Origin: Opitutales bacterium
Lineage (GTDB): Bacteria > Verrucomicrobiota > Verrucomicrobiia > Opitutales > PNEW01
Assembly: GCA_965219535.1 (NCBI GenBank)
Contig: CBDCNV010000002.1
Span: 870,001-902,000, forward strand
Reading direction: 5' to 3'
DNA: 32,000 nt
The position numbers and the translations under genes were made by a program. The notes beneath the pieces were generated by a model, which saw only the letters and a program-made list of their open reading frames with translations, was not told the origin of the DNA and ran no database searches. Within the stretch, counting starts at the first letter, position 1. Every line of letters starts with the position of its first letter. This document shows, piece by piece, positions 3,442-28,938 of this stretch.

Positions 3442-6267
3442 TTAAAGAACAATCCGGACTTCCCTCAATTTAGGAGTCCCACACCCATAAGGCGAAATAA
3501 AGGTCGCTTTATATTGTAGCCATTGGGCATCACTTGGGATTCCTTCAATCGCTTCACCTGATGTTTCATAATAAGACTTGTCGCCATGTGGCCCCGACCA
3601 GGCGGCATCCTCTAATCCCTCTTCTGTTTCACTCCACCGGAGTTGGAATTTAATATTTAAAAGATCTGTCTCTTCACTTTCCCAATGGATGCGGCTCGCC
3701 TCTCTATTACCCAGCTCATAGGGGGGTGAAAAATAATGTTCTTCGGGCTTTCTCGTGTAGGCGTTACCGTGATCATAGGAATACATCCCATGGGGTCCCA
3801 ATCCGGGGAGTCGAGTCGGCTCGGTCGCAAAGAAACCATCGGGGCCATTCCAGTAAATCAATGAATCAACCTGGTGGCCGATGTCATCGCGGTGGCACGC
3901 CAGGACGATATCAATCCATCCATCTCGATTTAAATCAATTTGAATGACGTCCCCCGAGCCGTAGGCTTCAAAGTTTATAGGGTTCTCCAAGTCCAGCCCC
4001 TTCCCATTACCCCAGAATAACTGGGCGGGTGGGACTCTTGTCGTAGGTGTTGCATAGGCAGAGACCACGAGATCTAAATTGCCGTCATTGTTATAATCCG
4101 CGATGCCCGTATACCGGGCGCTGTATGCGCCAAAGTATTCCTGGATATTTTCGGGATCATAACCATCAGGGCTGCCGTAGAAGATACGGAGCGTGTCTTT
4201 ATGGCGGAGTCGGGTGCCAAGAATGCTCACAATCATGTCCAACCAGCCATCCTTATTCATGTCGGCAAAATTTAGTTTTACCACATCTCCCGTCGCGGCG
4301 CAGGGAAGGTATTGTCTGTTGTTTTTGGAAAAACCATCAACTTGACCAAAGTAAATCAGTAACCGGTCCCCAAAATCATGGAAGGCTATATCGATGTAGC
4401 CGTCATTATTGACATCACCGATCGCTGAGGTGAATCCGTGATTCTTTATGCGATCAATACGTGAATTGGAAAATCCGTCCGCCGATCCATAATAGATAAT
4501 CGACGATTTTTCAGGGTCATCCGTGATTTCTTTCACCAACGATACAGCGAGAAGATCGAGATACCCGTCACGATTAAAATCGGTGGTCTCCATATCGTAA
4601 TGGTCATGTCCCGTATGTAAATCGGTAAACTTTTCGGATCTTATCCCTTCGGGCACTCCCTCGTAGATGCGAAGTGCTTTGGGAATGCTGAATACTACTT
4701 CCGGGTAACCATCCAGGTTCAAATCGGCAATTAATGCGACATTGCTATGAAGGGTTTCCAGTTCAAGACGGTTTTTAACACTATACTCAGCTTCTGCGTT
4801 TCCCAGATAGACATAAGAGGGCACATGACTGACATGGCCATCATTGACATTGTTAAATATAACTTCAGGGATTCCGTCCCCGTCGAGATCCCCGGCGGTA
4901 TTTCCGATTACCCCAATCGTCGGAACCCAGCTTGTGTTGTCTTCGGAATAGCCGTCAGGCCCATTCCAATAGATAGGAGACTTCGTTCTGTATTCATTCC
5001 CCTCATAGTACTTGCTGATGATCAACTCGGGAAGTTCGTCACCGTCGAGATCGGCTGCTGTTATCCAGCGTGAATTCTTCACCCTAACCGTTGTTTTTAC
5101 TTTTTCCAGATCGTCACCGGAGCGAATCTGTACACCATCTGTGGTGGCAACTAGGAGGTCCGGGATGCCATCGGTATCGACATCCGCGATTTCAGTACGG
5201 ATTACGTCGCGGTTGAATTCCCCGGTGTGACCTGCCGCCTTAATGATCATCGGGTTCTCTGTATCTATGGCTCCGGTTTTATTCCAGAAAATGCTTAACT
5301 GACCACTGCCACTGAACGTAATGTCAATGTTCCCGTCACCGTTAAGATCTTCCAAGATGACCTGGCTCGCCCCATAAGTCGGTAAGATAAGTGGTTCCTC
5401 GGCATTTACGCCGTCCTTGGTTCCCCAGTATAATAACGATTCCGTATTGCGTTCAACACTTCCTACCCGGGAACTGGCCAAAACAATTTCTGCGTGGCCA
5501 TCATTATTCAGATCTCCTGTGGCGATTCCCACGGCTCCCGTTGCCATCATTCCATATTCCTTACCCTTATCTTCAAAGCTGCGGTTTTCGCCTTGTATAT
5601 AGACATGAGTTAAACGTGGCTTTGCCGGATTGTGGCTGTCTACCCACGCTGAAGGCAAGATCAGGTCAAGCCGCCCATCACGGTTAATGTCGACTGCAAT
5701 CACATCAAAGGACCCGATTGCATGTAGGTCGGTCCGGTCCGCTTCCAGACCCTCGGGTCCGCCCCAGTATATAAAAAAAGGCAATTCAGAGGTGATGCCA
5801 TCATGACCGATAACCGTTACCAGATCATTATGACCGTCACCGTCCACATCGATAACCTTGCTCATATACCCTCTATCCCTGGACATTTGGTGCAGCTTCC
5901 AATTTTCGCCCGAACTTTTTTTCTCGGGTGAGTAGACCCAGGTGGGACCGCGTTCGACTTTATCGTGCGAATTAGCGAGAACGATGTCGACATAGCCATC
6001 GCGGTTAACATCGAAATGATTGATGATCTCAATCTCTCCCTTGGCGTTCACATAAAGATTATTACCTGCGTTTTCAAATTGACCCTGGGAAAACCCATCA
6101 AAACCCTTATGCACCCAGACTTCCGGTGCCTTCATCTCCTCGACCTCCATCCGCGCTTTGCCCATGGAAAAAAGAGAGCTACTGAAAATTAGTGAGATGG
6201 CAATTGAAGCTATCGTTGAGCGTAACAGGTGGAGTGAATGGCTTGAGGTCGTGGTGTGTATTTTCAT
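3442..6267 (-). CDS. FG-GAP/VCBS repeat-containing secreted protein
   Basis: 941-aa ORF with an N-terminal hydrophobic signal/anchor and more than 10 copies of the Ca-binding-type D-x-N-x-D-G-x-x-D motif (DVNRDGYVDIV, DVDGDGHNDLV, DINRDGRLDLI, DLNGDGNIDI, DLDGDGIPEV and others). Confidence 0.85.
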   Translation of the reverse strand: MKIHTTTSSHSLHLLRSTIASIAISLIFSSSLFSMGKARMEVEEMKAPEVWVHKGFDGFSQGQFENAGNNLYVNAKGEIEIINHFDVNRDGYVDIVLANSHDKVERGPTWVYSPEKKSSGENWKLHQMSRDRGYMSKVIDVDGDGHNDLVTVIGHDGITSELPFFIYWGGPEGLEADRTDLHAIGSFDVIAVDINRDGRLDLILPSAWVDSHNPAKPRLTHVYIQGENRSFEDKGKEYGMMATGAVGIATGDLNNDGHAEIVLASSRVGSVERNTESLLYWGTKDGVNAEEPLILPTYGASQVILEDLNGDGNIDITFSGSGQLSIFWNKTGAIDTENPMIIKAAGHTGEFNRDVIRTEIADVDTDGIPDLLVATTDGVQIRSGDDLEKVKTTVRVKNSRWITAADLDGDELPELIISKYYEGNEYRTKSPIYWNGPDGYSEDNTSWVPTIGVIGNTAGDLDGDGIPEVIFNNVNDGHVSHVPSYVYLGNAEAEYSVKNRLELETLHSNVALIADLNLDGYPEVVFSIPKALRIYEGVPEGIRSEKFTDLHTGHDHYDMETTDFNRDGYLDLLAVSLVKEITDDPEKSSIIYYGSADGFSNSRIDRIKNHGFTSAIGDVNNDGYIDIAFHDFGDRLLIYFGQVDGFSKNNRQYLPCAATGDVVKLNFADMNKDGWLDMIVSILGTRLRHKDTLRIFYGSPDGYDPENIQEYFGAYSARYTGIADYNNDGNLDLVVSAYATPTTRVPPAQLFWGNGKGLDLENPINFEAYGSGDVIQIDLNRDGWIDIVLACHRDDIGHQVDSLIYWNGPDGFFATEPTRLPGLGPHGMYSYDHGNAYTRKPEEHYFSPPYELGNREASRIHWESEETDLLNIKFQLRWSETEEGLEDAAWSGPHGDKSYYETSGEAIEGIPSDAQWLQYKATFISPYGCGTPKLREVRIVL

Positions 6268-10575: not shown

Positions 10576-11262
10576 ATGAAATACGATGCGGTCATTTTTG
10601 ATTTATTCGGGACACTTGTAGATAATTTTTCTCTCGTTGGGCACGAACGAGTTCTGAAGAACATGGCATCAATATTATCAGTATCTTCTGATGCTTTTGT
10701 CCAACTAACCGTCAGTACTTTCCATGAACGGGCTACCGGCGTCTATCCAGACACTGAAGCCTTTATCCGATACGCCTGCGCTGCACTTGGCGGTAATCCT
10801 AGTGTAGAGAATATAAAATTGGCTGTTCAGATTAGAGCTGATTTCGAACTTCAATCAATGGTTCCTCGAGATGGGGCGTTAGAAACACTAAAGGAATTGA
10901 AGAACATGGGCTTTAAGATCGGTCTGATAACTAATTGTACCGCCGAAGCTCCTGATTTATGGGACCAAACGCCCTTTGATTCACTTATCGATATAGCGAT
11001 ATTTTCTTCTTCGGTCGGGCATATGAAACCAGACCCGGAAATTTATAATTTAGCCTGTGAGAAATTACAAGTGGCTCCAGAGAAATGCCTTTTCATTGGC
11101 GATGGAAGCAATAAGGAACTCACCGGCGCCACCCAAGTAGGGATGGAAGCCATACATTTACGCATAGCCGATGAAGAGCTCGAAGATGCCTATTTGATAG
11201 AAAATGAAGATTGGAAAGGAACATCTATCTCGGCATTGAAGGAAGTTTTGGAATTGGTATGA
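10576..11262 (+). CDS. HAD-superfamily hydrolase
   Basis: 228-aa ORF with motif I at the N-terminus (AVIFDLFGTLVD), LITNC (motif II region), K in HMKPDPEIY and GDGSNKEL (motif IV). Confidence 0.8.
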   Translation: MKYDAVIFDLFGTLVDNFSLVGHERVLKNMASILSVSSDAFVQLTVSTFHERATGVYPDTEAFIRYACAALGGNPSVENIKLAVQIRADFELQSMVPRDGALETLKELKNMGFKIGLITNCTAEAPDLWDQTPFDSLIDIAIFSSSVGHMKPDPEIYNLACEKLQVAPEKCLFIGDGSNKELTGATQVGMEAIHLRIADEELEDAYLIENEDWKGTSISALKEVLELV

Positions 11263-11294
11263 TGGAATATAAGTTGTAAGTAGTTGAAATAATA

Positions 11295-11369
11295 GGTGGA
11301 ACGCGCTGTCCCTAGCGCGTTTAAAAATGTCATAAATAAAGAAGCGTGCTAGGGACAGCCCGCTCCACC
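11295..11369. repeat. REP doublet (REPIN-like), short form
   Basis: Near-identical to 10395-10499 over both arms and the spacer (one a/g difference in ...aaagaaRcgtgc...), but lacks the 30-bp module. Confidence 0.85.
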
Positions 11370-11419
11370 TTAATGCTTAAAACTTTTCGAATCAAACCAG
11401 ACGAAGACGAAGATTAGTT

Positions 11420-11899
11420 ATGAATAAATCAAACACCAGTATAGCTTCCCTTTCAGGAAGAGAGTTTACCTGTTTCCCGGTGGCGCTGGTGGGATATGTT
11501 GTAAACAAAAACAAAGAATTTCTCTTTCTCAGCCGCCGGGGAGAAGACTCCTGGGAAATTCCGAGCGGTGCCATGGAGGGGGGTGAGAACACAGTCGATG
11601 GCATAATGCGCGAATTGCATGAGGAATTGGGCGATGCTATCAGGGTCAAACCCTTGGGTGTTGTTCACGCTCACACTTTTCCCTTCGACGAAAAAGTAAA
11701 AGAGATGATCAGTATTGGGTTTCTTATACAGTATCTCGGTGGAGAGATAAATCCCAGTGACGATATGAAAGGTGCAGCCTATAAATGGATGAGTTTGGAA
11801 GAAATCAGTTTAGAAAAGAATATCTCCGTGCCACGAAATAAAGGCACGCTATTTGAACGGGCAACAGAATTGTATTCATTGTGGAAAGATGAAGAATAG
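11420..11899 (+). CDS. NUDIX hydrolase
   Basis: 159-aa ORF with a complete Nudix box GAMEGGENTVDGIMRELHEELG (Gx5Ex7REUxEExGU). Confidence 0.9.
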   Translation: MNKSNTSIASLSGREFTCFPVALVGYVVNKNKEFLFLSRRGEDSWEIPSGAMEGGENTVDGIMRELHEELGDAIRVKPLGVVHAHTFPFDEKVKEMISIGFLIQYLGGEINPSDDMKGAAYKWMSLEEISLEKNISVPRNKGTLFERATELYSLWKDEE

Positions 11900-11942
11900 G
11901 TGTTAAGTTTTAAGTGTTAGGTTTTAGGTTTATTTACTTAAC

Positions 11943-13319
11943 GGTACAACCAGGACATGGTTTACAGATTTAGATCAAGACATGGTTTACACTTTGTGAG
12001 GGATGCTGAACGGTAATCGGGTTATATAGTTAAGTTAATGTTATGCGGTTTTAGAGGTTTGGCTGGCATTGTTGGGGCCGCAAGCGGCCCCAATGAAAGC
12101 AGCCGTTGAAAGGTCAATCTGACCGATTCTGAGAGTGGCAAAGTAAACATCGAAGTGTACCGTGTCTAGTGGTTTTAGTCCAACGCTCCAACCGGCGAGG
12201 GCGGTGGAGATAGGAATCTGGAAGCCATCGAGTTTGATAGACCCGCTTTTTGAGACCCGGCGAGTCATCAAATCATAGCTGATATCGGCAGGAGTGCCAC
12301 CGTAAGGATGAGAGCTGTGCTGATAGATTTCAGAGGGCGTGCTCATGGCAAGAGCCGCATGGGGGCGTTCTTCATTGAAGGTCTTGCGCCACAGATCGAA
12401 GGCCACCTGTTGGGTGCGAAGATCGTCCTGGGCATGTTTTTGCAACTCCTCTTTGATATCGCGATGGAGACGCTCATGGGCACCGTTATCCTGGGGTTTA
12501 CCCGGACGTCCACGCTCGAGATTGATCCCTAAGGCCAGCCACCAGGCCGCCAGTTTGCTCAGGCCCAGGACCGCATTGGCACTGGCAAAGGGACTGCCGT
12601 TGTCGCTGCGGATGCAAGCGGGAAGTCCATAGCGTTCAAAGAGTTTTGTGAAGCATTCACGCACCGCTTCGCTACGGGCTGAACTGAGCACCCGCACCTC
12701 TAATACATAGCGGCTCCATTCATCCCGTACCGTCAAAGGTTCACAACGGTTGCCATCAACGGTGTGCCACCACCCTTTGAAGTCTACGCTCCACACTTCG
12801 TTACAGCCACTGGCCTTGACGCTGCGGTAAAGGCGTCCGCTTTTTTGAGCGCTTCTGCGCCGACGCTTTTGCACCAGTCCCGCACGTTCCAAGACCCGTT
12901 TCACGCTCGAGTCTGAGGGGGCCTTCCCGTAACGCCTCTGGTAAAGCTCGCGGATCTTGTAGGGGCCCCACGTCGGGTGATGATGCTTGAGTTTGATCAG
13001 CGTACATACTACTGATTCGGATAGTTCCTGAACACTTCCATGCGGTCGGCGTGAGCGCTCGTGCAACCCCTCCATCCCTTCGCTCAGGAAGCGCTTCTTC
13101 CATTTATACCCTGTCGGTCGGCTGATCCCGTAGTCTTCACACAGCTCGTTCATCTTTACTCCCGGTTGCATCGATTCCAGGGCGAATTGGTATCTTTGGT
13201 CCATTTTATTTGTTTCCTTCCATGACATCATACCCCTTACTTAGCATCCTTCTTTCTTTGGCAATCTGTAAAGGATGTCCTGAACCTTTTGTGTAAAGAA
13301 TGTCTTGAACCTATACCAA
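11943..13319 (-). mobile_element. IS481-like insertion sequence (single DDE/rve transposase)
   Basis: Imperfect terminal inverted repeats (left GGTACAACCAGGACATGGTTTACA; right end reverse-complemented TTGGTATAGGTTCAAGACATTCTTTACA), each end carrying two CA[A/G]GACATnnTTTACA sub-repeats. ACTTAAC is present on both flanks (11936-11942 and 13320-13326). G+C is visibly higher than in the flanks. Confidence 0.7.
12041..13231 (-). CDS. DDE (rve/integrase-core) transposase, IS481-family-like
   Basis: 396-aa ORF. N-terminal HTH (ELCEDYGISRPTGYKWKKRF). The catalytic region carries WSVDFKG (D), IRSDNGSPF (D) and KPQDNGAHERLHRDIK (E). Confidence 0.85.
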   Translation of the reverse strand: MMSWKETNKMDQRYQFALESMQPGVKMNELCEDYGISRPTGYKWKKRFLSEGMEGLHERSRRPHGSVQELSESVVCTLIKLKHHHPTWGPYKIRELYQRRYGKAPSDSSVKRVLERAGLVQKRRRRSAQKSGRLYRSVKASGCNEVWSVDFKGWWHTVDGNRCEPLTVRDEWSRYVLEVRVLSSARSEAVRECFTKLFERYGLPACIRSDNGSPFASANAVLGLSKLAAWWLALGINLERGRPGKPQDNGAHERLHRDIKEELQKHAQDDLRTQQVAFDLWRKTFNEERPHAALAMSTPSEIYQHSSHPYGGTPADISYDLMTRRVSKSGSIKLDGFQIPISTALAGWSVGLKPLDTVHFDVYFATLRIGQIDLSTAAFIGAACGPNNASQTSKTA

Positions 13320-13386
13320 ACTTAACACCTAAAACTTAACACGCACGTAAGTGCTATCCCTTTGACTTTCGACTGAGATACCTCCC

Positions 13387-15123: not shown

Positions 15124-15163
15124 TAATATTCAAAGCTTTTTATTATATCCATAGTTTGAGTAA

Positions 15164-15274
15164 GAAGCGTGCTAGGGACCAACCTTCGCCAAGGCTACGG
15201 CTGGCAGGCAGCCCGCTCCACCTATCATCTTTGAATAATGCAATAAGGGTGGAACGCGGTGTCCCTACCGCGTT
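15164..15274. repeat. REP units flanking the 3' side of the RAYT gene (R-type with 30-bp module, then F-type)
   Basis: 15164-15222 is gaagcgtgctagggac[caaccttcgccaaggctacggctggcaggc]agcccgctccacc. 15248-15274 is GGTGGAACGCGGTGTCCCTACCGCGTT. Confidence 0.85.
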
Positions 15275-15318: not shown

Positions 15319-15756
15319 TTAATACTCCAAAGTCCAAGGCCATAACTCTGGTTTCGTGCATAATCCTTTTACTACTGGATTATAACGAATATAGGTGCTT
15401 TTTAATTCAAGTTCTTTATCATTTCTAATGCGGTGATCAAAATAGTTTTCCTGCCATTTTATAAAATTATTACGATGATGGTATTTCTTCCAAATACCTA
15501 TCAAATCGCTCATGTTCTTCTCTGGATTGAAAGACAATATTACATGAAGGTGATCGGGCATCAACACGAAGAGTCGACAATACCAATTACCCTTTTCCTG
15601 ATAGTAGATAACTGAATTGAGTATTTGAATGCCGAGAGAATAATCAGTCAAGGGAGGCTTGTTTTCCTGATGACAGCGAATGCGAATATGAAAGACTGAA
15701 CCAGATCTAACCCAAGATGGTGTCTCATGATAAAGTCGTCTCGGATACCGCTTCAC
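15319..15756 (-). CDS. REP-associated tyrosine transposase (RAYT; IS200/IS605-like Y1 HUH enzyme)
   Basis: 145-aa ORF with the HUH motif MPDHLHVIL, then WQENYFDHRIRN, then the catalytic-Tyr motif YIRYNPVVKGL and WPW. REP units lie in inverted orientation on both flanks. Confidence 0.85.
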   Translation of the reverse strand: MKRYPRRLYHETPSWVRSGSVFHIRIRCHQENKPPLTDYSLGIQILNSVIYYQEKGNWYCRLFVLMPDHLHVILSFNPEKNMSDLIGIWKKYHHRNNFIKWQENYFDHRIRNDKELELKSTYIRYNPVVKGLCTKPELWPWTLEY

Positions 15757-16684: not shown

Positions 16685-16792
16685 GGTGGAACGCAGTGTC
16701 CCTACTGCGTTTATTACAAGTAGTAAAAAAGAAGCGCGCCAGGGACCAACCTTCGCCAAGGCTATGGCCGGCAGGCAGCCCGTCCCTCCACC
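16685..16792. repeat. REP doublet (REPIN-like), long form
   Basis: GGTGGAACGCAGTGTCCCTACTGCGTT ... aagcgcgccagggac[caaccttcgccaaggctatggccggcaggc]agcccgtccctccacc, followed by CTTTGAC/TTTTGAC/CTTCGAC heptads. Confidence 0.85.
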
Positions 16793-17875: not shown

Positions 17876-17928
17876 TTAAACATCGCTTGACAGCCTGAAA
17901 TTTGGCTGTAGTTTCGCCATTTCTGTAT

Positions 17929-18006
17929 GGGGCAGTAGTTCAGTTGGTTTAGAACGCCGGCCTGTCACGCCGGAGGTCGCGGGTTCAAGTCCCGTCTGTC
18001 CCGCCA
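17929..18006 (+). tRNA. tRNA-Asp: tRNA-Asp (anticodon GTC), CCA encoded
   Basis: Hand-folded cloverleaf. Acceptor GGGGCAG/CTGTCCC (one G-T pair), D stem GTTC/GAAC, anticodon stem CCGGC/GCCGG with loop CTGTCAC, T stem GCGGG/CCCGT with loop TTCAAGT, discriminator G plus CCA. Confidence 0.93.
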
Positions 18007-18228
18007 AATTTTGCATTGCAAAATTTGCCCACCGTAGTCCCGCTATTGCGGGACGAAGGCTGGCCTTTCGTGATCACATACTAGCTCAGCACAACAGCTT
18101 ATTAATCACCATGCCAGTTAATGAAGAGCAAAAGGTTGTTGAATTTGGACCTTTAGATCGGTAACGCATGAATCTTAATAAGAATCGTTTAGTTTAGCGA
18201 TCATTCCTTTTGTTCGCATCATTTTTTC

Positions 18229-18316
18229 ACCCAACACCGAAAATCACCGGCGTTAAAAAGCAGAGCGAGAAACGAGCAGCGCTTTTTTGCGTCCGAGTGA
18301 ATTTGTCTTGTTAGGC
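18229..18316 (-). other. Integron attC-like recombination site (attC-2, 88 bp)
   Basis: Minus strand reads GCCTAAC-AAGAC-[AAATTCAC..CGG-A-CG..CAAAAAAGC ... GCTTTTTAA..CGCCG..GTGATTTT]-CGGT-GTTGGGT. That is an RYYYAAC inverse core, a 5-nt spacer, a long imperfect palindrome with bulges, and a GTTRRRY core. Confidence 0.65.
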
Positions 18317-18353
18317 GAGGTATTATCACTTGATAGCGAATCAGCGTCAGCGA

Positions 18354-19392
18354 TTATTTATACGCAACTGCAGCGCTGGTGGGACCGGCAAGACTTATAA
18401 CTTCGAAACGCTTGAATCCTGCATCAATACACCATTCGCGGAAATTTTCTCCTGTGTAATCGAAGGCATCGCCAAATTCGATGAGCATGTTGAGCGACAT
18501 TAAAAGGCCAAACGTATTTTCACGTCGGGCATCGTCGATCAAGTTTTCAATAGCAATAAAGGCGCCGCCCACCGGTAGTGCATCATAGGCATTCTTGATG
18601 AGAATTATCTTTTTCTCGAGGTTCCAGTCATGCAGAATATTACCCATTGTAACGACCTCGGCCTTTGGCAAATCGTCATTGAAGAAATCACCTGAAACCA
18701 CCTTGATACGTTCGGACATATCCGCCGCATCTATCTGTTTCTGGGCATGAGGCGCCACTGGTGAAAGGTCAAAGGTGCTAAACGTTAGATGTTCATGGCG
18801 CGCACCAACGATTCGTGACAACAGAGCTAGGGCGCCACCGATGTCGCTCACAGTCTTGTATTTGGAGAAGTCGAACTTCTCGGCCAATTGGGTGAAGTTT
18901 GCCGCTTGAAAACCGGTCATCGCATCAAGGAACTCTTCAAGTTTTAACCTCGTTTGCGTATAGTTCTTCGAAAATTGTTTTACCATTGATCTTAACTTCG
19001 TTCTGTGGCTGTCCAGTCTTAAGTGCAGTGCCAAGATGGTTCCAAAATCCAAATAGACGAGAGTTTAGCATCTCTGGCAAACCACCAATGTATGCTGGGC
19101 TGTTCTTGCCCAGGAACGCGGCTGTTTCGGGCGTGTTCTTATACTGACCTTCCGGACCATCCCCGTCACGGTCTAGAAATTTCAACGCCACCAGTGCGTC
19201 AAAGAAGTCATAGGTCCCACGCGGGTGAAGCCTGAGTTCCTTACCAAGTTGTTGTGCCGTCATTGACGCATCCCCAAGCGTGGTAAAGATATCCAGTTCG
19301 ACGGCCGTGAGCAGTACCTTGGAACCCCAAAAAGCCGTTGCCGTTTGCATTATGTGAGTCGCATCGAGTTGGTTCTTCATTTTTTCCTCCAT
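18354..19392 (-). pseudogene. Frameshifted class I O-methyltransferase (dimerisation domain plus Methyltransf_2-type domain), cassette-borne
   Basis: Two overlapping ORFs (18937-19392 and 18354-19052) together make one COMT-like protein. The N-terminal part ends ...FEELYANEVKT* and the C-terminal part resumes ...RLKLEEFLDAMTG...VSDIGGALA. Removing one G in the GAGG run (plus-strand cctc, 18948-18951) joins them as LYANELKLEEFL. RBS GGAGGA precedes the ATG at 19380. Confidence 0.8.
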
Positions 19393-19403
19393 AAGAAAGA
19401 GTT

Positions 19404-19467
19404 GCTTAACGTCTGAGCTCAGCCGCGAGGCCCGCAGAGCCTCGTCGGCCGGAGCGATTTGTTAGGC
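19404..19467 (-). other. Integron attC recombination site (attC-1, 64 bp)
   Basis: Minus strand reads GCCTAAC-AAATC-GCTCCGGCCGACGAGGC-TCTGCGG-GCCTCGCGGCTGAGC-TCAGAC-GTTAAGC. R''/R' pair in 6 of 7 positions. There are unpaired spacers, and a stem with a bulged A (GCCG-A-CG) and a second CG/T bulge. The ORF stop TAA lies inside GCCTAAC. Confidence 0.8.
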
Positions 19468-19938
19468 GCTCGCATTTTTTACATGACCTTTGGAGCGCAG
19501 CAACCCATAAATGGTGAGCAGCAAAGCCGCCAAGATGGTTACAGCGCATAGCAGGAGCAGGTTGGTGACGACTGGATTGTCGACACCATGTGGTGGCGGA
19601 AACTTTTCATTCAGCGTCGGCATGAGCTTCGACGAGGATCCCATGAAGGCCGCCGCAACTCCCGCTGCGCCGTTGGTCCAAGTGCCAATTTGCAGCGTGG
19701 CAAACCAAACTTTAAATGCGGTCGGATTTAGGCGGAGTTTATTGACCAGCAAGCCAAGTGCCACCATCAAAATACCGTTGGCAGTGAACTCAATGTGAGC
19801 CATCACGATTCCGCGAAACCACGCCACAGCTGAGGGCGGAATTAATCCGATCACGCAGCCGATCGTAATTTGGACAACCCCTAGAATCAAAGTCCAATGC
19901 ATGAGATTTTCTTTTAAGTTGTCGACATCAGTTTTCAT
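19462..19938 (-). CDS. Small integral membrane protein (~4 TM), cassette-borne; possibly hydroxylaminobenzene-mutase-like
   Basis: 158-aa ORF with four long hydrophobic segments. RBS AAGGGAG lies upstream of the ATG. The family suggestion rests only on my recollection of an AHxE..NG motif (AHIEFTANG). Confidence 0.7.
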   Translation of the reverse strand: MKTDVDNLKENLMHWTLILGVVQITIGCVIGLIPPSAVAWFRGIVMAHIEFTANGILMVALGLLVNKLRLNPTAFKVWFATLQIGTWTNGAAGVAAAFMGSSSKLMPTLNEKFPPPHGVDNPVVTNLLLLCAVTILAALLLTIYGLLRSKGHVKNASA

Positions 19939-20003
19939 ATTTTTGCTCCCTTGGTTGAGCGCCTAACAAGTGTTTCTAAAGTTCTGTATATTCGCGTATG
20001 GGG

Positions 20004-20032
20004 ATAATGCACCTCTACAAAATTCCTGTCAA
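20004..20032 (-). promoter_or_regulatory. Sigma70-like promoter facing the cassettes (Pc-like)
   Basis: Minus strand: TTGACA (20032-20027), a 17-nt spacer, then CATTAT (20009-20004). A second TTGACA lies at 20042-20037. About 65 nt upstream of the first cassette ATG. Confidence 0.4.
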
Positions 20033-20079
20033 TTCTTGTCAAAATTCCTCAATAATTACCTGATTCCTGCCCATTCCTG
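20022..20079. repeat. Array of six ATTCCTG-type direct repeats at 8-12 bp spacing
   Basis: ATTCCTG at 20022, ATTCTTG at 20032, ATTCCTC at 20044, ATTACCTG at 20055, ATTCCTG at 20063, ATTCCTG at 20073. The array overlaps the TTGACA hexamers. Confidence 0.7.
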
Positions 20080-20206
20080 CCAAACATTTTAAGGCAACGC
20101 GAGGAAACTAAAGGAAAATATAAATTATTTTTCAGTCGTTATTTATACGGAACTTTTTATTAATAAACAGCTTCCGTGGTATTAAAAAATCCCGTTTATA
20201 CACGAA

Positions 20207-20298
20207 TTCAAGTCCCGTCTGTCCCGTCAAACTTTGCATTGCAAAGTTTGCCAGCCGTAGCTCAAAGAGCGAAGGATGGCTTTTCGTAATCATCAGCT
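20207..20298 (+). repeat. Duplicate of the tRNA-Asp 3' end plus downstream sequence
   Basis: ttcaagtcccgtctgtcccg (20207-20226) is identical to tRNA positions 17984-18003. The similarity continues through aaaYtttgcattgcaaaRtttgcc...cgaaggNtggcYtttcgtRatca. Confidence 0.85.
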
Positions 20299-20567
20299 GG
20301 TTGCGTACAACAATTTGTCCCAATTCAACCCTAGCTTACCGAAGTCTTTGCATTGCAAAGTTTGCCATCCATCTTGTCGGCCATAGCCTTGGCGATGGCT
20401 GAAGCTCGAAGAGCGAAGGATGGCCTTTCGTGACCGTCACCCAATTATGAACAGCAGGTCACCCGCTTCAACCTCTAGCTTGTCGAAGTCTTTGCTATCG
20501 CAAATTTTAAGCACCCATGTCCCCGTATAACTTCATCACCCTACACTAAAGTCAGGCGATGCCGGCC

Positions 20568-21680
20568 CTAGCCCACGTCACCTGCACTGTTTTGATCGCC
20601 CTTTTTTTTTCGGTACATGACATTTGATTGGTTTTCAGCCAGCAATAGCTTTCTACAGTCTTTGCTCTTCAGGTAAATGTCGAAAAATTCGACAATCACC
20701 ACTCCCAATCTTTCCACGCGTTCCACCGGCTGAAATGAAAACAACGAATTGACGTCTTTAGCGCCACTGTTCATAGCGAGATAGCTGACAGTCGAAAAGT
20801 CGTTATGATCCCAACCTTCGAAAATCACGAAATTGAATTCCCCGTTAAAGTCTTTGGCATTGCCAGCGAACTGTTGAGTGATTCCGTCCAAATTGGGTCT
20901 GCCTTTAATTCTTAGCATCGGTGACAGGCTACTTCTGAGTTTTCTCTGTGTGCTTTCTGGCCATCTGTTAATCCCCGATGTTCCGTCATCAGTCATATAG
21001 GCATATAGAAATCCGTCGATATTACCCACTGCCTTAATTCTTTCATCCTCGGCGTCGAGTAATGTGGAGACATAGCCACCGCGAGAATGCCCAAACATGC
21101 CGATAGCATCGAGATTGACTGCGTTGATTAGCGCTTCGGGGAAGTTGCAACCGAAAATGAAATCGAGGACTTTCTGAGCATCCACAACGCGATCTTCAGT
21201 GAGCTTAATGAAATCGTCGTCATCTGCGATTTCTGTGCATAGATGTCCGCTGGGGTATGTGATCAGGTTTCCTTCATGTGGGTGGTCTATTGAAACAACC
21301 ACATAACCCGACAATACAATCTGCTTGAGAACCGGAAGGTTTGAAAAGCGATTTCCAACTCCGGTTGGCGAGTACAAAAGCAGTGGATAGGGATCTTGTC
21401 CTGAAAGCAGTTCGGCGCTCTCATAGCACCCGGTTGCGATCTTCATTGAGTCTTCAATGATTCGTCCTTTTTCCCCTTCGGTTAGAAGCGTGCCATTCAG
21501 GATACAGTCAAGTGCCGGTTTTATTGAAGGCTTGAAGAGGTCAGTGTACATCATCTCACGCGAGTCCGCATCGCGTTTAGCCGGATAAAAGATCGAAATC
21601 GGAATCGTTCTCAAAGGATACGAAGCAACAGAACTTCGTTTGCCATCTTCGATAAAACTGTGTTCAACGCCTACATCCAT
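20568..21680 (-). CDS. Alpha/beta hydrolase (PAF-acetylhydrolase/lipase-like)
   Basis: 370-aa ORF with nucleophile elbow GMFGHSRGG, an upstream PLLLYSPTGVGN and a C-terminal EGWDHNDF (candidate catalytic His). Confidence 0.7.
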   Translation of the reverse strand: MDVGVEHSFIEDGKRSSVASYPLRTIPISIFYPAKRDADSREMMYTDLFKPSIKPALDCILNGTLLTEGEKGRIIEDSMKIATGCYESAELLSGQDPYPLLLYSPTGVGNRFSNLPVLKQIVLSGYVVVSIDHPHEGNLITYPSGHLCTEIADDDDFIKLTEDRVVDAQKVLDFIFGCNFPEALINAVNLDAIGMFGHSRGGYVSTLLDAEDERIKAVGNIDGFLYAYMTDDGTSGINRWPESTQRKLRSSLSPMLRIKGRPNLDGITQQFAGNAKDFNGEFNFVIFEGWDHNDFSTVSYLAMNSGAKDVNSLFSFQPVERVERLGVVIVEFFDIYLKSKDCRKLLLAENQSNVMYRKKKGDQNSAGDVG

Positions 21681-21780
21681 CTGATCGTATGCTTGTCATG
21701 TCGTGGAAATCTCAGGCCTTCTGCAATTGGAAGGAAAAAAATAGCAATGCAATGCGCCATAGTTTCGGCAGTTACAAAAT

Positions 21781-22140
21781 GGAAATAGGGTCAGACTGCG
21801 AATTCTTTGATTGATAAGAAACTATGGGAGGACTGGAATTGCAAGAAATGGCTCGAAAACCAAGGTATGAAAGTAACAACGGGCTCTACCACATCATCAA
21901 AAGGGGAAACTATCACCGGGATCTGTTCTATGCGGCGAAAACAAAGAAAGCTTTCAAACGGACGCTGATTAAAGCGTGCAACAGCCCGAAACGGATGGAT
22001 AGCAGCCAGGTTAAATATGGGTGAGTATAATTCAGTTAGTCACAATGTTAGTATCTTTCAGTGTGAGCAGAAGAACAGAGGTAAAGCCTACAGAACTTTG
22101 AATAAAATCAAAGAATTCGCAGTCTGACCCTTTACGTTTT
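21781..22140 (+). mobile_element. MITE-like unit A: 25-bp perfect TIR around a Y1/HUH-transposase N-terminal remnant
   Basis: TIR GGGTCAGACTGCGAATTCTTTGATT at 21788-21812, with its reverse complement at 22106-22130. The internal ORF 21824-22024 encodes ARKPRYESNNGLYHIIKRGNYHRDLF..., which is the conserved N-terminus of COG1943-type transposases. The HUH and Tyr motifs are missing. Confidence 0.75.
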
Positions 22141-23960: not shown

Positions 23961-24091
23961 TTGTTATCACTAAAATATAAAATCGCTACTTGTTAAATCA
24001 AATACGCATGTCCTCATTTTTCCCCATCTCACAATCATTGCTTCGATAATCACCATAATAATATCAAAACAATCTTCTGATAAAATAAAAG

Positions 24092-24459
24092 GGAAATAGG
24101 GTCAGACTGCGAATTCTATGATTGATAAGAAACTATGGAAGGTTTGGAATAGCAAGAAATAGCTCGAAACCATAGGCTTGAAATTAACAATGGGTTCTAC
24201 CACATTATCAAACGGGGAAACTATCACCGGGATCTGTTCTTTGCGGCGAACGGCGAAAACAAAGAGAGCTTTCAAACGGACGCTGATTAAAGCGTGCAAC
24301 AGCCCGAAACGGATGGATCGCAGCCAGGTTAAATATGGGTGAGTATAATTCGGTTAGTCAAAATGCTAGTATCTTTCGGCGTGAGCAGAAAAACAGAAGT
24401 ATAGCCGACAGAACTTTGAATAAAATCAAAGAATTCGCAGTCTGACCCTTTATGTTTTA
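24092..24459 (+). mobile_element. MITE-like unit B (decayed copy of unit A, same orientation)
   Basis: Collinear with unit A at roughly nine identities in ten by eye. The transposase remnant is broken by TAG codons and a cggcgaa tandem duplication. The TIRs are present, with one mismatch. Confidence 0.75.
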
Positions 24460-25279: not shown

Positions 25280-26048
25280 GTATGTGAAGAAAGTACGCTA
25301 CTACTTGGGCATCCTGCATATCAGGACACGATTGGACAGATTTATCATTTGGACAGGGTTCTTCGACCCGTTCGATCACAAATCCAGTGTCGTTAATAAG
25401 ATTGAGCCATTGACTTATAGTTCGAGTGAAGCGCGGTGTCTTAAATTTATTTAGTTTCTCTCTAATTTCCATTGGGGCAGAGTTAAAAGTCCATTCATTG
25501 ATGTCACCTTGCAGGTTGCGGAAATAATCGCCAACTTCGATCGCATAAGTCAGGCCTTCCTCATTTCTTAGGTTACGTCGATGTGGAGTTGAAAAACAGG
25601 GATGTTCAATTGAAAACTGAATGAAACCACCAGGTCCGATTACTCGATGGGCTTGTCTAAGCGCAAGATCGATTTCAGGGATGCTCATGAAACTCATGAA
25701 TGCTACAGCAAAGTCAAATTCGGCATCGTTAAAAGGCAGGTCAACAGCGCTCGCAATTTTGTAGTCAATCCCAACTGGCTCTTTTTCTTCTGTCTGCTTT
25801 GCGAATCGGATGAAATCCTCGGAAATGTCAATGGCTGTTACACGTGCGCCGCGATCTGCAAGGATTCGTGTGTTGTGGCCTTCGCCGCAACCAATGTCCA
25901 ACCCTGATAGCCCGGCAACCTCGGGCAGCATGTCGAAGAAGGCTGGCGTATTGAGATAATCCCGATACAAATCGTATCCAGCTCTGGAAAGCTTAGTCCA
26001 AGCCTCAGCATTCCCGTTCCAATATTTTCCAACTTCTTCGTGATTCAT
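25257..26048 (-). CDS. Class I SAM-dependent methyltransferase (diverged tandem paralog)
   Basis: 263-aa ORF with motif I GLDIGCGEGHNTRILADRGARVTAIDIS. Confidence 0.85.
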   Translation of the reverse strand: MNHEEVGKYWNGNAEAWTKLSRAGYDLYRDYLNTPAFFDMLPEVAGLSGLDIGCGEGHNTRILADRGARVTAIDISEDFIRFAKQTEEKEPVGIDYKIASAVDLPFNDAEFDFAVAFMSFMSIPEIDLALRQAHRVIGPGGFIQFSIEHPCFSTPHRRNLRNEEGLTYAIEVGDYFRNLQGDINEWTFNSAPMEIREKLNKFKTPRFTRTISQWLNLINDTGFVIERVEEPCPNDKSVQSCPDMQDAQVVAYFLHIRARKRNE

Positions 26049-26137
26049 ATTTCGATCGTATTCAATTGCCTTACATTAGATTTGATAATCGGCAATTTAT
26101 CAAATCTCGGTTGTAGCGGGAAGAAAGTAATATAAGG

Positions 26138-26166
26138 GAATTCGCAGTCTGACCCTTTATGTTTTC
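26138..26166. repeat. Solo right-end unit of the GGGTCAGACTGCGAATTC family
   Basis: gaattcgcagtctgaccctttatgttttc matches the right ends of units A and B. No partner left end is nearby. Confidence 0.8.
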
Positions 26167-26295
26167 CTCTGAGGCGTTTAATTGTTCTCCTACCACATCG
26201 GTCACCCAGTAATCCAGCACTTCCTTTTCATGATCGTCAACGGTCCCTGATGCATGGCTTCTGTTTGATCCGACCTTTCGCCATCATTTGTGCCA

Positions 26296-27639
26296 TCACG
26301 TGGCTGGGTTCATGGGGCCGAGACGCTCGATGCGGCGGCGGGTGGCTAACAGAACTATGGTAGCAGCTCCCAGGGCCACTGCAAAGGCTCCGTATTCAAT
26401 GCTCGGTGCACGGGAACTGGCGGACGCGACGTACCCTCCGAGCAAGCCCCCCAGTCCGGTCGAAACGAACCACACGCCCGTGAGCCGCTCCACCCAGCCA
26501 TCTGGCGCCCAGCGAGTAACCATCGACAGGCCGACGGGACCGAGGATCGCAACCGCCGCGGCTTGCAGAACATAGAAAGACAGCAACATGCCAGCACTCG
26601 CACCCTGAGAGCCATCCGGCGCTAAGCCCCGTGCAGCAACGCTGAGCAACAAGAAGGACGCGGCAATGAATGCGATGCTGATCGCGATCTTCGTTGGTGC
26701 CGACTGCGGCGCGCCCCGATCTTCCAAGCGACGCCACACCGCAGCGACCGGCAGGGCCAAGGCGACCACGAACAGCGCGAACACCGACAGGAACACGGTA
26801 GGCGGTACCTCCCAGCCGAGCACTCGCCGATCGACAAAGTTCTGCGCGAAAAACACCACCGAACCGCCCATCTGACTGCAGCCCACATAGAACACCAAGC
26901 AGAACAGCGCAAGCAACAGAACCCCCAACACGCGGCGCTTTTCATGGGGCGACAACGCTTCCCTCTTATTGGCGCCTCCCCCCGCGATGGCCACGGCAGT
27001 AACGCGCCGCGTCGCTAACGCGAGCACCACGACCCCCAACACTGCCGCCAGTGCCAGCATAACATAGAAACCCGTCCAGTCGAGACGGACCACTACCGGA
27101 CCGGCTAGCGCCTGCGTCGCAAACGTCCCCATAGTCGACACCATGTAGAAGATGACAAAACCGTCGTCGCGTTTGCTTCTCGTGGAGGTCGAGGATTCGC
27201 CAACATTATATGCGTCGCTAACCATGGTGACGACGGTCGGCCAAAACAAACCGTAGCCCAAAGTTATAAGCACCGCGCCGACGAGCGTGAAGTTCGGCGA
27301 CCCGACGAGAAATAGAAGCGACCCACTGCAGAGACACAACAGCGCAGCTTGGGCGATGTGTACACACCGTTGCGGCGCGGCAGCGGACCGAAGCCGCGAC
27401 ACCGCGAACCCGCCGAGTGCGGGCATCATAAAAGCGAGCCCCAACATCAGCCCGTACGATGACATCGCTCGCTCCTGGCTAAATCCGAGGCGACTGGTGG
27501 CGTAGAGCGGGAACATGCTCGCCAAGCCCCAGAAACAGAAATTGTGCAAGAGCGCGACCCCACTAAGAATTTTTGTCGTCGCCGATAGTGAACGCCAGTT
27601 CATGAGTATCACTCTTATGAAACTGCCCGATTCGGGCAA
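26296..27639 (-). CDS. MFS-type transporter
   Basis: 447-aa ORF in the high-G+C block, made almost entirely of hydrophobic segments (about a dozen) with a central charged loop (ATRRVTAVAIAGGGANKREALSPHEKRR). Confidence 0.7.
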   Translation of the reverse strand: MPESGSFIRVILMNWRSLSATTKILSGVALLHNFCFWGLASMFPLYATSRLGFSQERAMSSYGLMLGLAFMMPALGGFAVSRLRSAAAPQRCVHIAQAALLCLCSGSLLFLVGSPNFTLVGAVLITLGYGLFWPTVVTMVSDAYNVGESSTSTRSKRDDGFVIFYMVSTMGTFATQALAGPVVVRLDWTGFYVMLALAAVLGVVVLALATRRVTAVAIAGGGANKREALSPHEKRRVLGVLLLALFCLVFYVGCSQMGGSVVFFAQNFVDRRVLGWEVPPTVFLSVFALFVVALALPVAAVWRRLEDRGAPQSAPTKIAISIAFIAASFLLLSVAARGLAPDGSQGASAGMLLSFYVLQAAAVAILGPVGLSMVTRWAPDGWVERLTGVWFVSTGLGGLLGGYVASASSRAPSIEYGAFAVALGAATIVLLATRRRIERLGPMNPAT

Positions 27640-27642
27640 TTT

Positions 27643-28938
27643 TCATCGATGTCCTTCCCTTGACGCGTCCGGGTTGGTGCTGCTAAGAGTTGTAACGCGG
27701 TGCTTGGCATGGCTTTGCATTTTCTGAGCGAACTTCTTCGCGCGCTCCATCGATTCGCCGACTCCACGCACGCAATCCTCGGTTTCCCACCGGTGAATCG
27801 CATCCGCGTCTTCGGACTCCAGTTTTCCGTTGTCGGCGAGAGCCCGAATTTCCTCGCCGCCGCACCACCGGAACTCCGGCCCGGGTGTGCGAGCGGCCGT
27901 TGCCCCTTCGCTGTCCTGGTAAGCATAAACCCGGCGGACGCCGTCCTCGTTACGATAATCGGCAATGTAAGTCATCCACGGGATCTCGAGACCGTATTTC
28001 TTCTGTAGCGACATATCCAGCTGCCCGATTACATCGGCCGTTACCGACTCCTGCACTAGCTTTTCCAGCGGAGCCGCGCCCGGCAGTTTCCAATCCCTGG
28101 CATCGCCTTCCACGAGCAGGAAATTCCCCCCATGATCGACAATCAACCGCGCCTCCGCAAAAAACTGATCCCCGTGATGCGGCACAAATCGCTTGCCCTC
28201 CTCGCTGAACGCCGAGAAAGCTCTCTCGCGAAACAACTGCGGGCCGCATCCCGGCGGTGCATTGACGGCCCGGTACTTGAGGTAGATCCCGTACCGGTCG
28301 TGATTTGAACGGTTACCCTTGCCCTCGTGCCAGGTGAACCCGTGTATGAAGCAAAGGTCGCCCCGCTTTAGTTCCGCATCGATCAGCGGCGCGATGTCGG
28401 ACGCCTGCGCGCGATGGACCTCGCTAACCTTGTCGGTGACCGGCACGATCTTCGACTCCCTGTGCGAGCCGGGGGAAACGAGTAGCGAACCGGTCTCTTC
28501 ATCTAGATCGGTGAGCGGAATAATCGCAAATAGCCAGTTGAGCGACGAACCCGCCTGCTGGTAGGTCTTGTAGTCGCAGTGCCCGGTGGGGTGACTCCCC
28601 TGGTAATCGCCTTGGGTGCCGACGGCCCCGGGCGTTTTCAAGTAAGAAACGAAGGCCGAAAGACAGACGTTACCGCCAAGAAGCGATTCGACCGGACCGG
28701 TAACGGCCGGATGCTCGCCAATTAACAATAGATCCGGATCGTCCTGATACTGTCCTTCAACCGTATACAAAGTCTTCGGCGCCGGATAGACTTTTCCGCA
28801 GCTGCTGCAATTGCCGGATGTGACCGCCCCGTACACTCCACGATCCAGGCGCTCCAACTCTTCATCCGTAAACGCCCCCTTTACGACGAGATAACCGTTT
28901 TCGTCGTAAAATTGTCTTTGCTCCAAAGTCAGGTTCAT
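27643..28938 (-). CDS. Phytanoyl-CoA dioxygenase (PhyH)-family Fe(II)/2-oxoglutarate oxygenase with a ~170-aa C-terminal extension
   Basis: The N-terminus LTLEQRQFYDENGYLVVKGAFTDEELERL is typical of PhyH proteins. Candidate facial triad: HCD (in HPTGHCDYK) and the His in GFTWHEGKGNRS. It lies 3 nt upstream of the MFS gene. Confidence 0.75.
   Translation of the reverse strand: MNLTLEQRQFYDENGYLVVKGAFTDEELERLDRGVYGAVTSGNCSSCGKVYPAPKTLYTVEGQYQDDPDLLLIGEHPAVTGPVESLLGGNVCLSAFVSYLKTPGAVGTQGDYQGSHPTGHCDYKTYQQAGSSLNWLFAIIPLTDLDEETGSLLVSPGSHRESKIVPVTDKVSEVHRAQASDIAPLIDAELKRGDLCFIHGFTWHEGKGNRSNHDRYGIYLKYRAVNAPPGCGPQLFRERAFSAFSEEGKRFVPHHGDQFFAEARLIVDHGGNFLLVEGDARDWKLPGAAPLEKLVQESVTADVIGQLDMSLQKKYGLEIPWMTYIADYRNEDGVRRVYAYQDSEGATAARTPGPEFRWCGGEEIRALADNGKLESEDADAIHRWETEDCVRGVGESMERAKKFAQKMQSHAKHRVTTLSSTNPDASREGHR

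Follow-up and report, generated by a model that had tools for sequence, protein, structure and literature searches.

The stretch of DNA analysed here, called the window throughout, comprises 32,000 nucleotides (nt) from an Opitutales bacterium (Verrucomicrobiota; GenBank assembly GCA_965219535.1, contig CBDCNV010000002.1, positions 870,001 to 902,000). Next to a tRNA-Asp gene lie two adjoining genes on the minus strand, one for a membrane protein of the SOI family (PF26512, assigned from precomputed annotation) and one for an O-methyltransferase, each of them an open reading frame (ORF) with a co-oriented hairpin-forming site at its 3' end. These sites, attC-1 and attC-2, have the build of the attC recombination sites of integrons, and the two units, here called cassettes 1 and 2, are the subject of this text. 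They lie in an island at 18007-20229, in which the order is attL, a repetitive extragenic palindromic (REP) element together with an integrase remnant, attC-2, the O-methyltransferase gene, attC-1, the SOI-family gene, a conserved leader, a set of arm repeats and attR (Table 1).

Table 1. Coordinates of the island, of the cassettes within it and of other repeated or mobile elements in the window.
Feature	Position	Strand	Basis and remarks
tRNA-Asp (GTC)	17929-18006	+	ARAGORN; Rfam 71 bits
attL-side core repeat	17984-18006	+	final 23 nt of the tRNA gene
REP-like palindromic element, TTTGCATTGCAAA core	18007-18075		repeat families; stands where relatives have the integrase gene
P4/phage-type tyrosine integrase remnant	18111-18164	+	last 17 codons MPVNEEQKVVEFGPLDR (18111-18161) and stop
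attC-2, 88 nt	18229-18316 (18316->18229)	minus	R'' GCCTAAC, L''/L' stem, R' GTTGGGT
Cassette 2, 1175 nt	18235-19409	minus	class I S-adenosylmethionine-dependent O-methyltransferase, ORF 18354-19392
attC-1, 64 nt	19404-19467 (19467->19404)	minus	GCCTAAC-AAATC-GCTCCGGCCGACGAGGC-TCTGCGG-GCCTCGCGGCTGAGC-TCAGAC-GTTAAGC
Cassette 1, 557 nt	19410-19966	minus	158-aa membrane protein, PF26512 'SOI' family, ORF 19462-19938
Crossover box GTTAGGC	19961-19967 (19967->19961)	minus	5' end of array; sequence
Conserved unstructured 42-nt leader CATTATCCCCATACGCGAATATACAGAACTTTAGAAACACTT	19968-20009	minus	abuts the crossover box GTTAGGC
Five CAGGAAT-like direct repeats	20022-20080	minus	sequence; putative arm-type sites
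attR-side core repeat	20207-20229	+	displaced tRNA-Asp 3' end, 22/23 identical; direct repeat
Second tyrosine-integrase pseudogene fragment	21623-21799	+	about aa 295-365, in-frame stop; tblastn 42%, E 5.5e-8
IS481-family transposase	12041-13231 (element 11941-13319)	minus	ORF
REP-associated tyrosine transposase (RAYT)	15319-15756	minus	78 bits, cut-off 80
REP-like repeats	18007-18075, 20230-20290, 20346-20433, 15162-15222, 16729-16789		repeat analysis

Read on the minus strand, attC-1 consists of the box R'' (GCCTAAC), a spacer of 5 nt, a bulged stem, a spacer of 6 nt and the box R' (GTTAAGC), and its bulged bases, both on the 5' arm, read C and A on the top strand, which corresponds to G and T on the folding bottom strand. 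A preliminary description, made from the sequence alone, had given these parts and coordinates correctly, as it had the stop codon TAA of the 158-aa ORF (19464-19462), which is embedded in GCCTAAC. For attC-2, which begins 37 nt past the O-methyltransferase stop, its location and the boxes GCCTAAC and GTTGGGT stood, but the 5-nt spacer did not: the covariance model described below gives the site a 5' spacer of 6 nt and one additional bulged base, and puts its bulges, T, T and A, all on the top-strand 5' arm. This extra base is also present in the attC sites of arr-3 and aac(6')-Ib. In both sites R'' and R' pair with each other, in DNA folds as in the model alignment, where the spacers beside the R boxes measure 5-6 nt and 6 nt. 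The layout with extrahelical bases on one arm is that of 24 reference sites and also of the arr-3 and aac(6') sites. At the 5' end of the array, the TTAGGC of the crossover box (19966-19961) is the exact complement of the R'' of cassette 1 itself, and the 13-bp inverted repeat TTGTTAGGCGCTC reported at 19459-19471 and 19957-19969 is likewise exact.

The motifs RYYYAAC and GTTRRRY each occur 69 times in 64 kb; 7-mers of this kind therefore prove nothing by themselves, and a structure-aware test is needed. A strict regular expression (RYYYAAC...GTTRRRY) gave no match, not even in L081, a true integron (comparison loci are given L numbers), because real R boxes depart from the consensus, and a looser rule-based scan, with 23 matches against 7 in shuffles, is too noisy to be used alone. 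Rfam returned only the tRNA for the window and no match to an attC-like family; as Rfam holds no attC family, we built our own covariance models from 80 species-level loci of relatives of the 158-aa protein. Model R1 was made from 11 hand-anchored attC seeds of 8 loci with their centres trimmed, hand anchoring having replaced MAFFT, which put the arms of full-length sites wrongly. Model R2, after one iteration, comprises 24 attC sites from other genomes only, the window and its two homologous sites being excluded. In its training set 92% of the cells of the L-helix are paired, compensatory changes are present in 11 of the 13 pairs, and shuffled and slid controls score far below the real alignment.

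With R2, attC-1 scores 59.3 bits (E 4e-12) and attC-2, matched over its full length, 28.9 bits (E 5.5e-5), both with exact coordinates and strand, while the next-best match in the window reaches only 8.5 bits (E 3.5); the covariance check that had been suggested thus finds both sites significant with a self-built model. R1 gives attC-1 51.7 bits and misses attC-2 (about -1 bit), being too narrow, and has one weak match that is not significant (9.6 bits, 20539-20600, after the 370-aa gene discussed below). As a positive control, R2 was run on two clinical class 1 integrons, where it found all four attC sites (dfrA17, aadA5, arr-3 and aac(6')-Ib, 24-43 bits) and no further match across 26 kb. 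The DNA fold of attC-2 has a z-score of -2.7 on the top strand. Since attC-1 is without a T-run, it is not an intrinsic terminator, and no terminator-like site was found in 17900-20400. The boxes, the bulges on one arm and the covariance scores support attC-1 and attC-2 as attC recombination sites, for which recombination activity is predicted.

The limits of the cassettes can be read from other genomes. The protein of cassette 1 has more than 1300 homologs, and relatives 75-86% identical to it occur in Acidobacteriota, Planctomycetota, Verrucomicrobiota and Gammaproteobacteria. The closest comparison is an Opitutales metagenome-assembled genome (MAG; L006) whose 158-aa protein is 97% identical to that of the window. 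Homology between the two loci is confined to one block of 602 bp (window 20009-19408, 96.8%) that stops at the GTT of the attC-1 R', a different ORF following in L006. In that genome cassette 1 is a single-attC insertion whose surroundings are unrelated to those in the window. A MAG of Blastocatellia (L007) has an unrelated canonical attC that leads directly into GTTAGGC|GCTCAACC, the 5' start of the cassette in common with the window being GTTAGGCGCTCAACC; in L045 another unrelated attC stands directly before the SOI-family gene, with the start GTTAAGCGCTCCACC; and in the integron of Perlucidibaca (L081) the homolog follows an attC that ends in GTTAGGT. Sites flanking the SOI-family gene were found also in L022, L045, L015, L020 and L081, and cassette 1 recurs with G|TT junctions in L006, L007/L002, L081, L022, L015 and L045. 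An integrase beside the cassette 1 homolog in L043 scores 190 bits against the IntI cut-off of 265. A sequence search of the PDB with the 158-aa protein gave no match, and a search of PLSDB found no plasmid with an SOI-family gene. As a separate observation on L006, the ORF that follows the shared cassette is cut (10940-12400) by an element of the IS3 family whose terminal inverted repeats are long, and two identical copies of an IS4-type (DDE_Tnp_1) transposase lie upstream.

Cassette 2 gives a similar picture. The preliminary description had the family of its product right, as the Pfam domains Dimerisation and Methyltransf_2 confirm. In the window the gene is split into two ORFs by one extra A in the run at 18941-18944 (A4). 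A second assembly (L094), 99.995% identical over 21 kb, has AAA (A3) there and an intact gene of 345 aa, so that the frameshift is probably a homopolymer error of long-read sequencing. Homologs 78-90% identical are found in many phyla, and the closest solved structure is RedM (E 1e-82); the plasmid search (PLSDB) gave only matches below 60% identity. In L097 and L098 the O-methyltransferase cassette starts at G|TTAGGC after different upstream sequence. The homolog in L097 (89% aa) is preceded by a short attC that differs from that of the window (29.9 bits) and ends in GTTAGGC before the homologous 5' leader of the gene. Behind the gene, the 5' half of attC-2 is conserved: a 40-nt post-stop spacer and GCCTAAC-AAGGC-AAATT are kept, and an unrelated insertion follows. 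The interruption of the L097 attC just past AAATT (about 1385-1480) carries a G/C hairpin CCCCCCAGCAAGCTGGGGGG, and the inserted DNA is possibly a mobile element with attC sites as its target.

That both cassettes occur with different neighbours and are joined to them at G|TT in other genomes gives independent support to both proposed boundaries (19410-19966 and 18235-19409), which had been drawn from the sequence of the window before genomes were compared cassette by cassette.

The window holds no complete integron, that is, no combination of intI, attI and array. A tblastn search with the integron integrase IntI1 had a best E of 6.5, and neither IntI1 nor the Perlucidibaca IntI matched the window at E <= 1. 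The two attC sites are 1,088 nt apart on one strand, and an attC cluster that lacks an integron integrase (CALIN) is defined as two or more attC sites separated by less than 4 kb on a single strand without an integron integrase nearby (PMC4889954). The pair is therefore a CALIN by the published definition, in keeping with the earlier view of it as CALIN-like and without intI. CALINs with two cassettes are the commonest size class (1362/2961; 10.1101/2022.09.11.507474), 95% of CALINs have no intI pseudogene nearby, and CALINs are thought to arise partly through loss of intI (PMC4889954). Too strong was the accompanying statement that no recombinase ORF exists anywhere in the 32 kb, since the window has an IS481-family transposase, a REP-associated tyrosine transposase and two integrase pseudogene fragments (Table 1).

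The vehicle of the cassettes can also be recognised. The 3' end of the tRNA-Asp gene is repeated in two copies only in the window, which is the pattern of an island inserted at a tRNA 3' end and bounded by a direct repeat. In a locus of the same species (L086, flanks 96% identical in nucleotides), homology with the window ends exactly at 18006, the last base of the tRNA. Intact phage/P4-type integrases of 414-417 aa follow directly after this tRNA-Asp in L086, L089 and L090, at the tRNA-proximal end of the island, and of such a gene the last 17 codons alone are left in the window. The remnant is 89% identical to the 3' end of the L090 integrase by blastn and 82% identical to aa 401-417 by tblastn (E 3e-4), and it lies 55 nt from attC-2, the spacing that separates the last attC from the intact integrase in L090. 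The integrases of L086 and L089 score about 19 bits on the IntI profile TIGR02249 (cut-off 265), that of L090 has no TIGR02249 among its NCBIfam matches at E <= 0.001, and the Pfam domains of the L090 type are Phage_integrase and, below its cut-off, Phage_int_M. By its sequence, the integrase of the island in these three loci is not an IntI. The tRNA-flanked islet, which had been remarked on as an unusual setting for cassettes, now finds an explanation as a decayed P4-type island at tRNA-Asp with the array as cargo.

In the locus L090 the integrase is intact and stands beside a longer attC array. Behind it come 11 small genes, all in one orientation, in an array that points toward the 3' end of the integrase gene, among them GNAT, AadA-like, HIT, glyoxalase, methyltransferase, APH and beta-lactamase genes, with attC matches of 44, 22 and 21 bits. 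At this tRNA, the integrase-bearing island of L086 and L089 is a different one. Two species that each have an array-type or a different island at this tRNA argue for turnover of islands. On the other side of the array, the five CAGGAAT-like repeats have a counterpart in L090 (9732-9814), where the motif GACAGGAATCAGACAGGAATTTTGTAAG (GACAGGAAT...TTTTGTA) stands between the integrase start and tRNA-Asp, and they are probably the arm-type binding sites of the island integrase, as expected on both att arms. The same stretch (20022-20080) contains a promoter-like match, TTGACA-17-CATTAT (10/12 in the scan); the number of such sites is not above that in shuffles. Beyond attR, the second integrase fragment, judged from its tblastn match, marks another decayed island. 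Immediately outside the island repeat stands a gene of 370 aa (20568-21680, minus strand), 88% identical in nucleotides to a gene that lies within the cassette-like array of L090 (2389-3534); the homology covers the gene and 34 nt upstream only, and no attC was detected beside it. Taken together, this gene and the second integrase fragment beyond attR make the tRNA-Asp locus an accretion hotspot.

The 42-nt leader that abuts the crossover box deserves separate consideration. It recurs as an element of 42-45 nt, CCCCATACGCGAATATACAGAACTTTAGAA.CACTT, which always ends in GTTRRRY, stands directly 5' of different ORFs and often has TTGACA before it. Copies were found in L006 (9930-9975), in L090 at about 386-432, 1560-1607 and 4742-4782, and in L091-L093; a metagenome scan added only these last three near-identical loci, which have no attC and no integrase. 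The leader was considered as a hairpin site and rejected (DNA fold z -0.2 to +1.9). It could act as a promoter module or as an attI-like site of entry, or be the 3' half of an attC family peculiar to the lineage. We speculate, as a tentative possibility and on balance a doubtful one, that cassette arrays in this Opitutales lineage are the sole cargo of a minimal tRNA-Asp element made of a P4-type integrase and attP. Cassettes would enter it through the leader ending in GTTRRRY, which would be an orphan attI-like site or a lineage-specific attC 3' half, with IntI supplied in trans. If this is true, CALINs would have a vehicle and an entry site of their own, independent of a resident integron.

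We consider it very probable that 18229-19967 consists of two genuine integron gene cassettes, which form a two-attC CALIN and are the sole cargo of a decayed 2.2-kb tRNA-Asp island. Each cassette would be an ORF followed by its own attC. Read on the plus strand of the window, the bottom strand relative to the genes, each attC is predicted to fold into a hairpin of the kind recognised by IntI, in which the R boxes pair, a spacer stays unpaired and the L-box stem has its extrahelical bases on one arm, and crossover would take place between G and TT of GTTRRRY. According to the genome comparison, both cassettes have moved, each as a unit cut exactly at G|TT; they would have been assembled by an IntI that was formerly present or acted in trans. 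The P4-type integrase of the island appears to have been deleted nearly entirely, with a REP element in its place. As no IntI is present and the P4-type integrase is nearly gone, neither the cassettes nor the island should be mobile by functions encoded in the window. Transcription presumably enters from the leader and arm region upstream of cassette 1.

Several points weigh against this reading. The DNA folding z-scores of the sites are only about -1.4 to -2.7. The attC model was built for this analysis and is not the curated one of IntegronFinder, and the E-values that it gives are approximate; the score of attC-2 is modest and the site has a third bulged base. An attC is detectable beside the SOI-family gene at about 10% of the 80 species-level loci, which means that cassettes are not the sole setting of the family. 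Since the window and L006 have 42 nt in common upstream of G|TT, the unit shared by these two Opitutales genomes is, at the 5' side, no clean cassette, and the case for the island rests on a 17-codon remnant and short repeats.

Other explanations of the hairpins and of the array must be weighed against these observations. That the hairpins are ordinary intergenic palindromes, terminators or REP elements, and match the boxes by chance might be suggested by the modest z-scores, by the frequency of the single 7-mers and by the many REP-like palindromes and the RAYT gene of the window. This view is already contradicted and hardly credible, as the REP family differs in sequence from the attC hairpins, the region is free of terminator-like sites, the structure-aware model selects these two sites alone in the window and also finds attC sites of clinical cassettes, and homology in other genomes breaks exactly at G|TT. 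Almost as improbable is an exchange of cassettes by the P4-type island integrase instead of IntI, which would draw on an excised circle in which integrase gene and array diverge from the att region, much as in an integron. At the same junction, and with this type of integrase, the two species represented by the window and L090 do differ in their sets of cassettes, and the leader is just 10 nt from the arm repeats; against this stand the domain content of the integrase, which is by its sequence not an IntI, and the occurrence of the same cassettes with canonical attC sites in genomes with a true IntI (L081). We know of no precedent for a P4-type integrase that acts on folded attC sites.

More serious are two proposals that accept the cassettes and differ in how the array arose. 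An integron may have degenerated in situ, with intI and attI once directly upstream of cassette 1, the leader as a remnant of attI, and intI since deleted, in line with the proposed loss of intI in the origin of some CALINs. The leader ends in a crossover box, stands where an attC would, precedes several different cassettes and contains an inverted AAC...GTT pair (ACAGAAC-13 nt-GTTAGGC) with a weak R2 match. Between the leader and the arm repeats, however, there are only 10 nt, and between it and attR 240 nt, which leaves no trace of intI and no room for it; the leader occurs three times inside one array (L090), which is unexpected for an attI, and also before a lone gene without attC or integrase nearby (L091-L093), and the rarity of intI pseudogenes near CALINs speaks against the proposal as well. 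We regard such an origin as unlikely. The same is our opinion of an off-site capture, in which an IntI acting in trans, from elsewhere in the genome or from a transient element, inserted the cassettes at an attG-like site or at the leader. Insertion by IntI outside att sites is documented experimentally (10.1101/2022.09.11.507474), the two-cassette size is the commonest among CALINs, and cassette 1 stands in L006 as a single-attC insertion in unrelated surroundings. Yet independent insertions into unrelated targets would not be expected to share the 42 nt upstream of G|TT that are common to the window and L006, and the long array at the orthologous position in L090 fits an inherited array better than piecemeal insertion.

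Comparison with known systems helps to place the array of the window. Like other CALINs (PMC4889954), it has two attC sites on one strand within the 4-kb rule, co-oriented ORFs and neither intI nor an intI pseudogene nearby; unlike them, it sits in a defined vehicle, the decayed tRNA-Asp island with its att repeats, and is preceded by a conserved leader that forms no hairpin instead of by another attC. With the attC sites of class 1 integrons (aadA5, dfrA17, arr-3, aac(6')-Ib) it shares the order R''-spacer-L''...L'-spacer-R' and bulges on one arm only, and the same covariance model scores both, at 24-43 bits for the class 1 sites and 29-59 bits for those of the window, although the cargo here is not antibiotic resistance. 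The integron of Perlucidibaca piscinae DSM 21586 (L081) is a complete chromosomal one, with IntI, an attI region and then cassettes with textbook attC sites. It resembles the window in its homolog of cassette 1 (69% aa), in the cassette start GTTAGGT and in attC sites with the same GCCGAC-type L box, and differs by its attI region and its IntI (464 bits on TIGR02249, cut-off 265; 59% identical to IntI1), both of which the window lacks. Cassettes outside integrons are also known as single attC sites lacking integron integrases (SALINs) and attG insertions (Loot et al., 10.1101/2022.09.11.507474), to which the single-attC cassette 1 of L006 is comparable; the upstream junction in the window differs in being a conserved 42-nt element shared between genomes and not a random GWT target.

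Islands with a P4-family integrase beside a conserved gene can carry an integron, as does SGI1 with In104. The island of the window is like those of the SGI1/In104 type in its tyrosine integrase, its bounds of direct repeats and its integron cassettes as cargo. Islands of that type carry a full class 1 integron, intI1 included, and many other genes, whereas here the element is minimal (integrase and array) and no IntI is seen.

As a CALIN, the pair of cassettes is ordinary, since thousands are known and two cassettes are the commonest number. It nevertheless confirms that canonical integron cassettes reach marine Opitutales, a clade of Verrucomicrobiota with few described integrons, and both cassette genes come from very widely shared families, each 75-90% identical across unrelated phyla. 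The context is more useful, as it proposes a concrete source for one CALIN, namely cargo carried by a tRNA-targeting island whose integrase was lost afterwards, and as it exposes a recurrent leader at cassette 5' ends, a candidate recombination or promoter module.

Some further features of the window may be added. The copy of the IS481-family element is missing from L086, of the same species, where homology joins 11940 to 13320; it is thus an insertion polymorphism. At least two families of REP-like palindromes are present alongside the RAYT gene, and one of these families stands directly after tRNA 3' ends, including that of tRNA-Ala in L087. An element of about 365 bp occurs in two copies that are 90% identical (21776-22140 and 24087-24458); it is bounded by a perfect inverted repeat of 26 nt (21787-21812 and 22106-22131), holds a short ORF like the N-terminus of a RAYT (21824-22024), and is found also in L006 and L087. 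Finally, the region 26000-28500, which spans genes of a major facilitator superfamily transporter and of the PhyH family, has a G+C content of 0.57-0.62, compared with 0.40-0.50 elsewhere, and may be another acquired segment.

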